From Escherichia coli (GTDB lineage: Bacteria; Pseudomonadota; Gammaproteobacteria; Enterobacterales; Enterobacteriaceae), in assembly GCF_016026235.1 (NCBI RefSeq), contig NZ_CP065613.1: a stretch of 64,000 nt of DNA; one strand, written 5' to 3'. Below, piece after piece: positions 2,076-8,600 of the stretch; position 1 is the first letter of the stretch, and the number at the start of each line of letters is the position of its first letter. Position numbers and translations under genes: made by a program. The notes under the pieces were generated by a model. It did not search any database, was not told the origin of the DNA, and saw nothing but the letters and a program-made list of their open reading frames with translations.

Positions 2076-4341
2076 TTATGCCAATTCAGACTCAAACGCT
2101 GCATCATTCGCTTCAGCCTCTGCGCCATCAATTAATGCCAAGACTCGGTCAAGAAAGCGTTGCGCTTCGTATACATCTGTTGCTTGCCGCAGATAATGAG
2201 GTATTCGTTCAACAAACTCGGAACGTGATAAAGGCTGATGTTCCAGCAAAGCCTCAAGCATTGCGGGCCGCAACAAACGACGATCAGCATCAACATTAGG
2301 AAGCTCAACCTCAATGACATGTGTGGCAAAATACTTAAGTTGCTCCTTAAGCCCCAAATTGGGCATAAGAGAATCAATTGAGTCAGACGCCACTTCAGCG
2401 CTTGACTCAATCGTTTCGACATATTCACAGGAAGGTACAACAACGTCTGGAGCCAATGTTTTAAGCTCATGGAGTTTACGGATAATCGGAGATAGAACCT
2501 CATCAGGATTACTGAACCAATCAGTGGACCAAATGCGGCTAATTCTCCAACCCAAACGCTCCAGAACCTCTTGACGCAAACGGTCACGATCACGAGCAGA
2601 TTTAGCTGAGTGATAAGCCGCACCATCACACTCTATGCCCATTAAGTAACGGCCAGGACAACCTGGATCTTTCACAGCTAGATCAATAAAGAATCCTGCA
2701 ACCCCTACCTGAGGTTCACACTCAAACCCAGCGTGATTGAGTGCTTCCATTACAGCAACCTCAAAGTCACTATCTGGAGCCCTGCCGGTATGCGTTGTGA
2801 GGGAATCTAGTTTGCCACTTTCGGCAAACTGTAAAAAACCTTTCAACGAAATAACACCAAGTTTACTGGTTTCACTCGTCAATACATCTTCAGAACGCAT
2901 TGAACTAAACACATGCATCCGTTTTTTTGATCGAGTGAAAAGCACATTCAAGCGACGCCAGCCAACATCGGAATTGATAGGTCCAAAGCGTTGATAAACC
3001 TTTCCACCATGCTCAGAAGGTCCATAGGTAAAGGAAATAAAGATTACATCACGCTCATCCCCTTGAACGTTCTCAAGGTTTTTCACAAAAAGTGGCTCTT
3101 CCATGGCATATAAGCCATCGATTGCATCGTTAAATTCAGGGCGATTTCGGCGCAATTCATCGATAGCGCGCTCAATTTGATCGCGTTGCTTGGAACTCAT
3201 GGCCACTACCCCGAGTGACTCACCCGGCCGGTGTTGCGCATGATGAAGTACGGCCTCAGCAACTGCTTGGGCTTCTTCAATATTGTGTTGATTGGAGAAC
3301 CGACCTTTTGACACATAGGTAAATTTAATCCCATACTCTGGAGACTCAGCATTTGGGGAAGGGAATATCACCAAATCACTGTTATAAAAATGGCGGTTAG
3401 AGTATGCAATCAACTTTTCATGTCGTGAACGATAGTGCCAACGCAAACGTCTCATAGGAAACAGTGGCAAAGCAGCATCCAAAATGCTGTCAGTATCACT
3501 TAAAGCCGCGGCATCATCGTCATCTTCTCCGTCGGCACTTCGATCAAAGAAACTGGTTGGTGGTAGCTGTTTCGGGTCACCAACGACCACTAGTTGCTTG
3601 CCCCTCGCGATGACACCCAATGCATCCTCTGGCTTCACCTGAGACGCTTCGTCCATCACCACCAGATCAAATTCCATTCGTCCAGGTTCTAGGTAATGAG
3701 CTGCTGACATTGGCCCCATCATGAAACAAGGTTTAATTGCAACCAGCGCATTACATGCACGGTTAACCAATTGCCTAATTGGAATATGTCTGGTTTTTTT
3801 ACCCAACTCATTTTTGATCAAAGCTAGTTCTGTATATTCACTTTTCTTACCACCAGAATTCCCTTCTGGTATATTTCGGTAAGCAATTTTTGCTGCAATC
3901 CGCTGACGTTGTAATTCAATCAGTTTTTTGTCGTAATCTTTAAATGACTTCTGCAAAGCATTGCGCTGTGAGCCGGAAACTCTCATCAATTCAGGGTGGA
4001 TGTGAATAACCTCCCGCGCCAGCTGGTCATGAATTGCTAATGCTAAACCCAATTCAACTTTTTCAATCGGGAGCGAGCCCGCAAGTACAGCACTCCAGAT
4101 TCGCTGCAATCCATTTTCATGCATCTGCTCGTAACAACGAATAAAGTTAACCCACCCGTTCAACCAACGGGGTTGCTGTATTGCTCTTTCGTTGCGCTCG
4201 ATTAATGTATTAAGAGAACCATCAGTCGACTTGAGCCACTGACTCCGCTCTAACTTTGTTTCTAGCGCATATAACTCAGCATTTTTAATCTGTTCATTCC
4301 ATTTCGAAACTATTTCCCCACCATCACGACATAGTAAATCG
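2076..4341 (-). pseudogene. C-terminal ~755 codons of the same IS1-interrupted gene: helicase C-terminal motifs plus a C-terminal Vsr/DUF559-like PD-(D/E)xK endonuclease domain
   Basis: 'VVMDEASQ' and 'VVVGDPKQLPP' (Upf1/DNA2-like SF1 motifs), 'LNVLFTRSKKRMHVF' (motif VI), C-terminal 'GIECDGAAYHSAKSARDRDRLRQEVLERLGWRISRIWSTDWF' (DUF559-like). Confidence 0.75.
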
Positions 4342-4396
4342 GGTGATGCTGCCAACTTACTGATTTAGTGTATGATGGTGTTTTTGAGGTGCTCCA

Positions 4397-5109: not shown

Positions 5110-8100
5110 AGTAAATCGTAATCACTACCACTAGCCAAATGTCTGATCTGGGTAGCCAAGGATACGCAATTTATCTTATCAACCAGTTGCTCGGCAAAAT
5201 TCAGCGTGTCGTTAATAGTGTCTAACGTCAGTTGATTATTTTTATACGCACCGCAAGCCAATGGGGTTAATTGTAAAAACGCCCCTAACTGTAACGAGTC
5301 ATTTTCAAGGGATATCTGAAGATCGTTTATGTTTTGCAAAATCTCGGAGGAATGAGTCATCTGCTCTAATGATATATCTGGATTGATAAACCATCCCTGC
5401 AAGGCAATGAGAGTATTCCGCACCTGTCGGTAAGATTGCATCAATACACCTTGCTCACCTAACCAAGATGCATGTTCTTCCAACAAGCTAGAAATACGCG
5501 GTAATAACTTAGCCTCGTGCTCGACCCGTTTAACCAAAGTCATTAATCTTGAGCTAATCTGCGATTTCTCGATTAAATGCACACCTTTGATAATCTCACC
5601 ATCTAGGTTAATTAATCCAGAGCCTATCGCAACTCGCTTTCCAAAACCTATCCCGTAACAAGCTCGGACCTTCTTGTACCAATCACGCAATAACATGAGT
5701 TGTTCACAGTCGGTGTCCAACCCTCGGAATGCATTACCAAGTTGATTACCAAAGTCACTTTGTTCAAACCGTTGTAACAGCTCCGAATACTTGAGCAAAT
5801 CAGCTGAGCAGCGTTTTAACTCAGCAAACTTAGTGTCAGGCTTACGAGATTGCGCCATGAGCAGTGCCTTGGCACTACGCCAATCACTCTTAAACCATGC
5901 AAATAATCCCCCTTGCTGGATAACAGCAACGGCATGCGCGAGCATCTCTTGGGAAGGCAACTGGTCCAATTGATACAAAGTAGATAGACCATCTCTTAAA
6001 GGACGCAATGTTTCGATTTGACACATTAAGTCGCGCAATACTGCATCGATATCATCATCATCAAAAAGAGGATCTCGAACTCTAATAAGCTCAGTCGGTA
6101 AAGCACCCAGAATCGACAACAACTCAGAGCAGAATAGCAATCCAGCTTGCGAATCATCGATATACGAAGCAATACCATCTGGCAAAGCATTTTTGAAATC
6201 GTTTAATTGCGCATAAATAGATGATAACTCATCATGAATTGATTGGATGGATTCAAGCCACCTGACCAAATCACGTAAAGTGAAATCCTCTGCTGCACCA
6301 TATTTTTCCAGCTCTTCACGAGGAAAGTCACACGATTGTCCTTGTTCTAAAAGTCGTAGCTTTTGAGGCTCGATAACCTGGCTCAAGGCCACATAATGAC
6401 CTTGTAGCAACTCGAACCTATCTAAATAGTGACGCACCCGTGCAATGGCATCGAGTGAATCTAGCTCACTAAGTGCTGGGAAATGCTCTGAACCACACAA
6501 CACTGGAAGATTCGACTGATCTTCTACCAATTGCTCAATATATTGAAGCGTATTAAGGCTTTCGCCTTCTAACGCCCACTTATCTACATATTCTTGATAG
6601 CTATGTTGAAAGTCGATAATTGATGTCTGCCAAGTTTGTAGCAAATCGACTATACGAGCGCTGTCAAACAATTGAATTTGTGTGTTATTCACACCGCTCC
6701 AAGGGTGCTCATATATTTCTGCATTAGCCCCCACCTGCTCACGAACCTCTTTGTAGATGCGGCTAAACTCTACTATTTGGTCACGCAGCCGTAATTGGGT
6801 CACTTTATCCAACTGCTTCCCGGAAAGGTTTTCGATATGAAGTGCTGTTGCATCAATATCTAATTTGTGACGATAACGTGTTGCACCACTCAAAATCTGA
6901 TGGATCGTTTTGCCTGTTTGCGCCCATTGGTTATTGATCAATGCGGCATATTCATTGAGCTGCTGCTTAAGATCTTCATAACGCAAAATCTGAGCATCAA
7001 TCTCTTCCATAGTAGGCATGGTCGCCTGACTCACCAAGCGAGCATTAATATCATCCAGCACCTTGCGCTTATGAGTTTTATGACTGTGCAACTCTAAGCA
7101 AAATTGACCTAGCCCCGCACGATCCAAGCGACGTTTGACGACCTCCAGTGCAGCCATCTTCTCTGCCACAAACAGGACTTTCTTACCGTTGAGCAGAGCT
7201 GCTGCAATCAAGTTGGTGATCGTTTGTGATTTGCCACTACCAGGAGGGCCCTCAATGACTAAGTTTTGACCACGGATAGCATCGATCAACGCACTGTGCT
7301 GCGAGCTATCCGCATCATCGATTAGTGGAACCTTGTCATGAATATCAGGGTAACTATCGATGCAGTACTCATGCTGACCGAAGCCACCAGGTAAGCCGGA
7401 ATTCTCTTGACCACAGCTCTGACTGGTGAAAAAGCGACGAATTACTTCATGAGACAATATATTGCGCTTGTCACAAGGCCAGCGGGCAGGATCGAGGTCA
7501 AGATACATCATCATCTTGCCAAAATTGAGCAAGCTAAGTGCACCATAACGTTTCACAGACCATTTAGGTTTGTGCTGCTCTACAACCTTCTTCACCGAAG
7601 CAAAATAAGACTCTGGAGTTTCCTCTTCATTGAACAAAGGAAGAGCGAGGCCAAAGTCAGCCTGAAGTTTTTCCTTCAAAGAGAGATTGGGCAAAATATC
7701 TTCACCCGTGTAATAAAGTTGAAACTTGTAAAGACCATCCTTCGGATCTAATTTTCCTCGTTCACATCTCACCGGAATTGTAAATAACGGTGCATAACGT
7801 GCCTTTTCAGAGGAATCGCTTTCATACCACTCAAGGAACCCTAACGCCAAATACAAGATGTTGGCGCCACTCTCCTCCAAAGCAGTTTGAGCCTTACCAT
7901 AGATGGCGCGCAAACAAGCTTCCAGTTCATTTGGATAAAGCAGAGCCTGTATCCGATTATCGTCATGAGAGGAATTGGAAGAAGATATACTAATCTCATT
8001 CCCAGCCTTTGCCTGTCGTTCAAAATCCTCAAGCCCTTCATAGCCTGCTAAGCAGCACGCCTCCTTCAACGCTGACAAAGCTATACCTTGATTAACGTAT

Positions 8101-8600
8101 TCAGAACGAATCCCTGTTAATTTTCCATTCTGGCCTTGGGCATATTGCAAGATAAACTGATGGGCTTTTTCCAGCAACTCTCTATCTGAATCAGAAACAA
8201 CCGTTTTATGGCTATCTGGTAAATCAAAATCTGTACGGATTCCTAAGACGTGCGCCCAATCCTTAGCGCTAGGATGAGCTCTTAACTGTATATCTTTACC
8301 ATCTGGCCCAACTTTGAGATAGCCATGCTCTAACAGCTGCGCTCTAGTTGGATCGGGCACAGGAGCAAATTCCATCGGGATTTCCGAGCAAAGGGTTTCA
8401 TAAAGCTGTTCTGGTAATTCATCAACAATACGTAGTGAAGACCCTTTTTGAGTGATAGGGAAATTCAAAAGTCGATTTCGAGACGTAAGGTCCAATAACT
8501 TCTTACGCATAGCCTCGAGGGAAGTCAGAATAAAATCTGAGCCTCCTTGATTGAGTTCCTCTGCTGTAGAGGTATCTACAGTCGACATAATGTTCTCCAT
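5110..8600 (-). pseudogene. N-terminal ~1,160 codons of an IS1-interrupted giant SF1 helicase-nuclease gene (N-terminal unknown domain plus Walker A 'GPPGSGKSQTITNLI')
   Basis: ORF 5088..8600 runs into the IS1 right end; Walker A P-loop in the supplied translation; gene continues in frame on the other side of the IS1. Confidence 0.75.

Follow-up and report, generated by a model that had tools for sequence, protein, structure and literature searches.

Two minus-strand open reading frames on either side of an insertion sequence, at 2076..4341 and 5110..8600 in a 64,000-nucleotide stretch of Escherichia coli DNA (contig NZ_CP065613.1; hereafter the window), raise the question whether they were once a single gene, which gene this was, and whether it still has a function. 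A first-pass annotation had read them as one helicase-nuclease gene of a Hhe/Nhi-like type, split in frame by IS1. The analysis described here answers with high confidence that both belong to hhe, an anti-phage gene of E. coli, which has been insertionally inactivated by recent transposition of an intact IS1. As a single-gene defence system in which a helicase is fused to a nuclease, hhe is already known.

The IS1 insertion and the restored reading frame

A complete IS1 of 768 bp is located at 4342..5109 on the plus strand, antiparallel to hhe, and was identified from its sequence and from the RefSeq annotation of matching copies as IS1A/IS1B family transposase. It starts with GGTGATGCTGCCAACTTACT and finishes with AAGTTGGAGTCATTACC, and its terminal inverted repeats match and are intact. 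Translation identified insA (4397-4672) and the insB' frame (4591-5094), both on the plus strand, and the A6C frameshift motif TTAAAAAAC is found at 4646. The element is bordered by a perfect 9-bp target-site duplication, AGTAAATCG on the plus strand, with one copy on the hhe-upstream side (5110..5118) and one on the hhe-downstream side (4333..4341), so that the length, repeats, frames, A6C site and duplication of an IS1 were all observed. The element and its duplication as given in the first-pass annotation are confirmed base for base. The duplicated bases begin with position 3 of codon Y1161 and end with position 2 of codon L1164, and residues 1162-1164 (D-L-L) are encoded twice, on either side of the IS1. 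The sequence around the insertion site is AT-rich (36-42% GC), and AT-rich DNA is the type of target preferred by IS1. The window holds a second IS1 copy at 25051-25818, which shares just 91% identity with this one and has no target duplication.

Since IS1, being multi-copy, is well known for causing assembly errors, it was considered whether the assembler had misplaced a repeat at this position. The exact hhe/IS1 junction was indeed found in 0 of 5,426 complete E. coli genomes. However, both junctions consist of base-perfect IS1 ends together with the perfect 9-bp duplication, a signature of real transposition that a misjoin would not yield, and an artefact is therefore extremely unlikely.

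In-silico deletion of 4342..5118 (777 bp), which removes the IS1 and one copy of the duplication, joined 2076..4341 and 5119..8600 into a single minus-strand ORF from 8600 to 2076 of 5748 nt and 1915 codons. Its terminal stop is the sole stop, and it could be translated without internal stop or frameshift, as had been anticipated. When an intact hhe was compared with the window by BLASTN, two colinear pieces were obtained (hhe 1-2266 and 2258-5736), the overlap of which is exactly the 9-bp duplication, which excludes a chance pattern. Both halves are also colinear on one family in the PADLOC and NCBIfam Hhe models, and the proposal that the two ORFs are one gene is thus borne out. The description of the split as "in frame" holds arithmetically, as 777 is a multiple of three, but says nothing about function, because an IS1 of 768 bp with a 9-bp duplication always adds 777 bp, and the element brings its own stops: the hhe reading frame runs into two of them six codons into the element (...DLL-VMTPTY). 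RefSeq uses the second in-frame ATG of hhe as start (M5, window 8588), and the published mutant numbering of E1731 agrees with the 1915-aa ORF starting at 8600.

Family membership, domain architecture and proposed action

The restored protein matched the PADLOC Hhe profile (PDLC02194) end to end with 4293 bits, residues 5-1915 aligning to profile positions 1-1911, and the NCBIfam equivalog Hhe_antiphage (NF042953) with 2736.4 bits against a cut-off of 2000, residues 27-1898 aligning to positions 1-1797. Compared with an intact annotated Hhe from another E. coli, WP_032289628.1, only 3 residues differ (99.8% amino acid identity). The intact orthologues in other E. coli that the first-pass annotation had suggested looking for are present, with 99.8-100% nucleotide identity. 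Judged by its sequence, the restored protein is Hhe proper and not merely Hhe-like, and no finding speaks against this. The earlier label "Hhe/Nhi-like" is sharpened accordingly. Among the PADLOC matches at E <= 0.01, from a release that may contain no Nhi model, no match to Nhi appeared.

Models of two sister families, ProA (NF058533) and PDC-S37 (PDLC05009), matched the protein too, with 1136 and 1271 bits, respectively. These are large DUF4011/SF1 helicase families that share with Hhe their helicase core and a portion of the insert and nuclease region. ProA, however, does not reach the value of 1500 set as its cut-off, and each of the two models aligns over part of the protein only. The Hhe models, by comparison, give two- to fourfold higher scores over the full length and pass the curated threshold, and proteins that carry the name Hhe are 99.8% identical to this one. 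Both identities were rejected, and membership of a sister family instead of Hhe has next to no chance. A literature search on ProA returned nothing relevant.

The Pfam search recovered all domains for which it had been proposed: DUF4011 (residues 34-312), AAA_11 in two parts (431-622 and 1382-1424), AAA_12 (1459-1641) and, at the nuclease end, MTES_1575 (1687-1784) and DUF559 (1728-1784). All Hhe motifs were found, namely GPPGSGKS (451-458), DEASQ (1391-1395), GDPKQLPP, TRSKK, and GIECDG with E1731, in agreement with the P-loop, Upf1/DNA2-like helicase motifs and C-terminal Vsr/DUF559-like nuclease predicted earlier. In the window all of these lie on the minus strand. The 5' part of hhe (5119..8600; codons 1-1160 and positions 1 and 2 of codon 1161), delimited by ORF list, restoration, Pfam and translation, encodes DUF4011 (7665-8501), the N-terminal part of AAA_11 (6735-7310) with Walker A (7227-7250), and most of a long helical insert. 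The 3' part (2076..4332; last base of codon 1164 to codon 1915, plus the stop codon) encodes motif II and GDPKQLPP in the C-terminal part of AAA_11 (3552-3680), AAA_12 (2901-3449), the Vsr-like nuclease (2472-2765) with the codon of the catalytic E1731 (2631-2633), and a C-terminal tail to which no function is assigned. Among helicases of solved structure, IGHMBP2, Sen1, DNA2 and Upf1 are the nearest, so that the protein falls into the Upf1-like SF1 group; no PDB entry for Hhe itself was found. The AlphaFold model of the N-terminal DUF4011 domain reached a pLDDT of 89.7 with 92 homologues.

Hhe, a single-gene helicase-Vsr-endonuclease system attributed to a 2020 defence-island screen (ref. 25 in 10.1101/2022.06.16.496414), protects against lambda, T3, T7 and PhiV-1, and the mutation E1731A abolishes defence, so that the nuclease residue is required (10.1101/2022.06.16.496414). 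T7 class II genes were identified as triggers of hhe, g40 is toxic together with hhe, and a connection with NAD+/adenine metabolism, instead of plain DNA cutting, has been suggested (10.1101/2024.10.10.617714). A phage anti-hhe gene has also been reported (10.1101/2024.04.14.589459). Intact Hhe is one polypeptide of ~1,915 aa in which an N-terminal DUF4011 domain, a Upf1/DNA2-like SF1 helicase, its core split by an insert of ~760 aa, and a Vsr-like PD-(D/E)xK nuclease are combined. Its most likely mode of action would be that of an SF1 translocase powered by ATP, which is loaded onto phage DNA that is aberrant or being replicated and brings the fused nuclease to it. Activation would apparently depend on the consequences of phage DNA-metabolism genes, not on one specific protein.

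Activity, age and recurrence of the insertion

The IS1 is located between Walker A and motif II, and the whole helicase core is therefore contained in neither fragment. As the uninterrupted coding sequence of a Hhe is lost and stops follow shortly after the break, the locus is a disrupted member of the family, a pseudogene, and not a functional Hhe. The allele is almost certainly non-functional, a strong inference that is based on two points: the predicted N-terminal product, of 1164 Hhe residues and 6 IS1-encoded residues, has just the Walker A part of the ATPase, and for the C-terminal part neither a promoter nor a ribosome-binding site of its own is evident. A search for a recorded protein identical to the N-terminal fragment found none.

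From a TTG at 4355, within the end of the IS1, an ORF of 759 codons does extend into the C-terminal half, and a low level of a fragment from motif II to the nuclease may be made from it. This fragment would retain motifs II-VI and the complete nuclease, and RefSeq annotates such hhe fragments as separate proteins in other strains, which could suggest that both fragments are made and reassemble, or act separately, giving a split helicase-nuclease that still defends or has a new activity. This is very unlikely, as Walker A and motif II are separated onto different polypeptides, and the break falls within the domain insert and not at a domain boundary. No Shine-Dalgarno sequence was seen before the TTG, and the promoter scan revealed no promoter-like site on the minus strand within or adjoining the IS1 that would read outward, which is weak negative evidence only, since the sites found in the promoter/terminator scan were no more numerous than in shuffled sequence. 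Moreover, the absence of the junction from the 5,426 genomes indicates that the allele has been neither maintained nor spread. No RNA elements were identified by Rfam in or near the hhe locus; elsewhere in the window it found just three tRNAs and DsrA.

The insertion is inferred to be young, because the rest of the gene differs from the intact allele at only 5/5736 nt (3 non-synonymous, 2 synonymous) and contains no further lesions. When at least 80% of its length had to be covered, hhe was found in 263 of 5426 complete E. coli genomes (about 5%), which contain 308 hhe-bearing loci in all, and at least 4 further independent IS insertions (IS1, IS5, ISKpn26, IS100) were found in it at different sites in other genomes. 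Two IS1 copies among the hhe insertions lie 55 bp apart in opposite orientations.

With at least five independent insertions and an ORF that is intact apart from the IS1, the element might be a reversible off-switch that silences a costly or autoimmune Hhe until the gene is regained perfectly by a rare event of precise excision between the 9-bp repeats; a phage trigger does render hhe toxic to the cell. This is unlikely, however: IS insertion into accessory genes is common, four other IS copies or remnants in the island let neutral decay explain the data, the AT-rich local sequence suits the target preference of IS1, and no evidence of excision was obtained. There is accordingly only a slim chance that the repeated hits result from selection for silencing an hhe that is costly or toxic to its own cell, with the ORF kept as a revertible reserve, and a variant in which the separated C-terminal helicase-nuclease fragment keeps an activity is still less likely.

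The preferred reading remains a recent insertional inactivation, and the locus should be annotated as the pseudogene hhe::IS1, with little significance beyond annotation. Truncated hhe fragments are sometimes still labelled hhe by defence-finding tools and RefSeq, and hhe::IS1 is not to be counted as active defence when the phage sensitivity of the strain is predicted. Apart from the IS1 the ORF is undamaged, so its restored form can serve in experiments as a ready-made natural Hhe allele.

The host island and comparison with known systems

The island that carries hhe as cargo is a decayed pipolin at tRNA-Leu that has lost its polymerase; DUF262 and hsd genes are neighbours of hhe in it. E. 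coli pipolins are defence-carrying islands at tRNA-Leu between pgsA and yecA (PMC11551731). In the window, this tRNA-Leu site was found together with flanking direct repeats and tyrosine recombinases. The end repeats of the island are at 1-114 and 28491-28602, and repeat comparison identified the distal one as containing a partial tRNA-Leu(UAA) copy, the 3' 56 nt, at 59..114 on the minus strand; its full partner is at 28547-28633, within a tRNA-Leu/Cys/Gly cluster (28547-28849) adjoining pgsA. Two tyrosine recombinases are encoded in the island (23643-24779 and 26287-27516). The window lacks any equivalent of the polymerase segment of a complete relative (L003, 15889-19786), and no ORF of the size of piPolB is present between 20.5 and 28.5 kb. 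Between the island end repeat and the hhe stop codon, an ISEc20 of the IS110 family (350..1800, plus strand; transposase ORF 577-1773) was identified, which lies outside hhe, yet is part of the decay of the same locus. This ISEc20-bearing left end was found in 0 of 5,426 complete E. coli genomes. The hhe::IS1 allele is a clean case of insertion sequences eroding the defence cargo of a mobile island.

Compared with the pipolins described (PMC11551731), the island has the same site and tRNA-Leu repeats, and its cargo of type I RM, PDC-S12, HEC-06 and hhe is likewise listed there, but the hallmark polymerase, the primer-independent family-B PolB (piPolB), and the DUF2787 module are deleted, on both sides of an IS1. 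The IS1 in hhe equals known IS1A/IS1B-type elements in length, repeats, frames, A6C motif and duplication and shows nothing unusual. With intact Hhe (hhe/HheA) the window gene has in common the full-length profile match, the architecture, the catalytic E1731 and the chromosomal neighbourhood, and differs in being broken by IS1 between codons 1161 and 1164. Nhi, Hachiman HamAB and Mokosh MkoA/MkoC appear to share by analogy only a common logic, an SF1/SF2 helicase coupled to a nuclease: no full-length similarity to Hhe was seen and their accessory domains differ, and the MkoA and MkoC models match just the helicase C-terminal core of Hhe (1e-26 to 1e-21).

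The IS1 insertion in hhe

Two long minus-strand ORFs, covering the 5' part (5088..8600, 1170 aa) and the 3' part (2076..4355, 759 aa) of hhe, flank a plus-strand pair of IS1 ORFs (4397..4672 and 4591..5094). The corresponding 768-bp element (4342..5109, plus strand, antiparallel to hhe) starts with GGTGATGCTGCCAACTTACT, finishes with AAGTTGGAGTCATTACC and has matching terminal inverted repeats. Its insA and insB' frames are intact, with the frameshift motif TTAAAAAAC at 4646, and AGTAAATCG abuts both ends (4333-4341 and 5110-5118) as the perfect 9-bp target duplication described in the first-pass annotation. 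The element is a textbook IS1.

When 4342..5118 was removed, a single ORF of 5748 nt and 1915 codons was obtained, with only the terminal stop and no additional frameshift. A BLASTN comparison of the window with the intact hhe of another strain gave two pieces only, hhe 1-2266 and hhe 2258-5736; they are colinear and overlap by the 9 duplicated bases. The restored ORF and the overlapping pieces confirm that the two ORFs are one gene interrupted by IS1, as had been proposed, and exclude a chance pattern. The duplication begins with the third base of codon Y1161 and ends with the second base of L1164, and therefore each side of IS1 encodes D-L-L (1162-1164), as was also noted at first pass. The gene had further been called split in frame. 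The arithmetic of this claim stands, but 768 and 9 bp add up to 777 bp for every IS1 with a 9-bp duplication, and the functional meaning is lost because the hhe frame meets two stops six codons into IS1.

Identity of the restored protein and consequence of the insertion

The restored protein, numbered from the ATG at 8600, matched the PADLOC Hhe model over its full length (4293 bits, protein 5-1915 to profile 1-1911) and the NCBIfam equivalog NF042953 ("DUF4011 domain-containing anti-phage protein Hhe") with 2736 bits against a cut-off of 2000 bits. Both halves thus belong to one Hhe family and not to unrelated ones. ProA (1136 bits, short of the 1500-bit cut-off of that model) and PDC-S37 (1271 bits, far below the Hhe scores) matched only partially and were rejected, and the remaining PADLOC and NCBIfam matches were confined to the helicase core. 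The predicted helicase-nuclease architecture was recovered with Pfam as DUF4011 (34-312), AAA_11 in two parts (431-622 and 1382-1424), AAA_12 (1459-1641) and REase_MTES_1575 (1687-1784) with an overlapping DUF559 (1728-1784). Walker A (GPPGSGKS, 451-458), motif II (DEASQ, 1391-1395), GDPKQLPP, TRSKK and the nuclease motif GIECDG are all present. RefSeq places the start four codons later (M5, window 8588); counted from ATG 8600, the published mutant site E1731A is exactly the glutamate of GIECDG. Intact orthologs occur in other E. coli, and the restored gene differs from that of strain CP8-3_Sichuan (WP_032289628.1) at 5 of 5736 nt, three of them non-synonymous (F997I, C1315Y, Y1799C) and two synonymous. 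The first-pass annotation was therefore correct in both its observation and its interpretation as an Hhe-type defence protein.

In sequence, the restored protein is closest among solved structures to IGHMBP2, Sen1, DNA2 and Upf1, which belong to the Upf1-like SF1 group of helicases; no Hhe is found among solved structures. The N-terminal DUF4011 region (1-434, window 7299-8600) was modeled by AlphaFold as a confident fold (pLDDT 89.7), for which comparison with solved structures gave no significant match; its invariant residues are G254, P271, L272, P276 and N305.

Protection by Hhe has been reported for lambda, T3, T7 and PhiV-1; the weak T7 protection observed in a second laboratory is removed by E1731A, and T4 is not restricted, irrespective of its DNA modification (10.1101/2022.06.16.496414). 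A phage knockout screen identified seven class II genes of T7 (1.4-2, 2.8), which function in DNA metabolism, as candidate triggers, gene 40 of Bas63 as toxic in hhe cells only, and the NAD+-salvage genes 79 and 80 as weak counters, and its authors concluded that Hhe senses the effects of triggers and not the trigger proteins themselves (10.1101/2024.10.10.617714). A phage anti-hhe gene was found in another screen (10.1101/2024.04.14.589459). Taking this literature together with the domains, intact Hhe most likely acts as an ATP-driven Upf1/DNA2-like translocase that would engage phage replication or recombination intermediates and thereby deliver the fused Vsr-like nuclease to them. A cost to the cell on triggering would fit this mechanism.

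IS1 lies within a ~760-aa insert between Walker A and motif II. The upstream product comprises 1164 Hhe residues and 6 IS1-encoded residues and contains only DUF4011 and the P-loop, while the part downstream of IS1 encodes motifs II-VI and the nuclease. From this arrangement we infer that the hhe::IS1 allele is non-functional. It is very improbable that the insertion represents selected, possibly reversible silencing of a costly Hhe, or that the separated nuclease half retains residual activity. An ORF does continue from a TTG inside the IS1 end (4355) into the C-terminal half of hhe; no ribosome-binding site was recognizable before this TTG, and a consensus scan, which is weak negative evidence, gave no minus-strand promoter-like site in or beside IS1. 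For the presumably non-functional allele, the near absence of other changes in the gene suggests a recent insertion.

Distribution and disruption of hhe in E. coli

Of 5,426 complete E. coli genomes, 308 contain at least a portion of hhe and 263 an intact-length copy (at least 80% covered); identity is 99% or more for nearly all copies. The exact IS1/hhe junction of the window was absent from all 5,426; the insertion is therefore a private and probably recent event. A single full-length hhe was also observed on a 164-kb plasmid instead of a chromosome (NZ_CP194970.1, 82547-88282; hit H102), consistent with gene exchange between mobile elements.

An evenly spaced set of 60 hhe records comprised 44 with one uninterrupted match, 7 IS-split copies and 9 truncated copies or remnants. 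Other E. coli loci carry independent disruptions (L002, NZ_CM166340.1, 5212-5979; L004; L005; L006). The IS-split genes include those disrupted by ISKpn26 in strain MB30, by IS5 in PCP06102, by IS100 in FORC_031 and related strains, and by IS1 in CH10982, 55 bp from the IS1 of the window, in opposite orientation and with an 8-bp duplication. IS1 favors AT-rich targets and the sequence around the site has 36-42% GC (44% for the gene), so that target preference suffices to explain two nearby insertions. In two genomes with disrupted hhe, RefSeq names an N-terminally truncated product 'anti-phage protein Hhe', and annotation alone therefore overstates the strains with a working gene.

A decayed pipolin as host island

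An island of ~28.5 kb (59-28633) between yecA and pgsA carries hhe. It is joined to the 3' end of tRNA-Leu(UAA) in the leuZ-cysT-glyW cluster (28547-28849), which adjoins pgsA and uvrC. The bounding 114-bp repeat (1-114 and 28491-28602, 96.5% identical) contains the 3'-terminal 56 nt of the tRNA. It was also observed that the repeat (1-58; 28491-28546) continues 56 bp past the tRNA-Leu 3' end into the spacer, to the window edge, and thus the island holds its own copy of the sequence downstream of leuZ.

The island encodes two tyrosine recombinases (23643-24779 and 26287-27516) and a type I restriction-modification operon (12919-20427) that appears intact. Its hsdR (13671-16958) is overlapped by an M48 metallopeptidase gene and followed by a yecA paralog (PADLOC PDC-S12, 17008-17691), hsdS (17688-18914) and hsdM (18904-20427). 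Two overlapping DUF262 genes (8775-12264; 680 and 484 aa) have N-terminal matches to the PADLOC HEC-06, Orf5 and SspE models; they lie immediately upstream of hhe in all related genomes inspected and therefore seem to travel with it. Searches of NCBIfam, PADLOC and PHROGs gave no match for two conserved ORFs (20731-21966, 411 aa; 22369-23499, 376 aa) that are annotated as hypothetical in relatives; these ORFs may correspond to the pipolin core genes called 'orphan' in PMC11551731.

An IS1 remnant of 376 bp (12512-12887), with 99% identity to the hhe copy, is located between the M48 gene and the DUF262 pair; it is also annotated in related islands and is thus older than the hhe insertion. In the spacer that separates the hhe stop codon from the repeat at the island end lies the IS110-family element ISEc20 (350-1800), with a 398-aa transposase (577-1773, NCBIfam 'IS110 family RNA-guided transposase'), which was found at this spacer position in none of the 5,426 genomes. 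A second full-length, divergent IS1 (25051-25818) is 91% identical to the hhe copy and has no target duplication, consistent with removal of the polymerase module by IS1-mediated adjacent deletions. Compared with the complete relative NZ_LR881940.1, ~3.9 kb and ~2.3 kb are lost, one on each side of this IS1. Together with these changes, hhe::IS1 is one of several lesions in a decaying, polymerase-less pipolin. Inactivation by IS1, the most commonplace insertion sequence of E. coli, is itself commonplace, and hhe and its kind of island are already known.

The relative NZ_LR881940.1 has a DUF2787 module and a DNA polymerase of family B, the primer-independent PolB that is the hallmark of pipolins, whereas both are missing in the window, as is an extra 1.9-kb cold-shock-domain gene of relatives. 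Described E. coli pipolins occupy the same site and carry type I restriction-modification, PDC-S12, HEC-06 and hhe as cargo (PMC11551731), and the island matches them in both site and cargo list.
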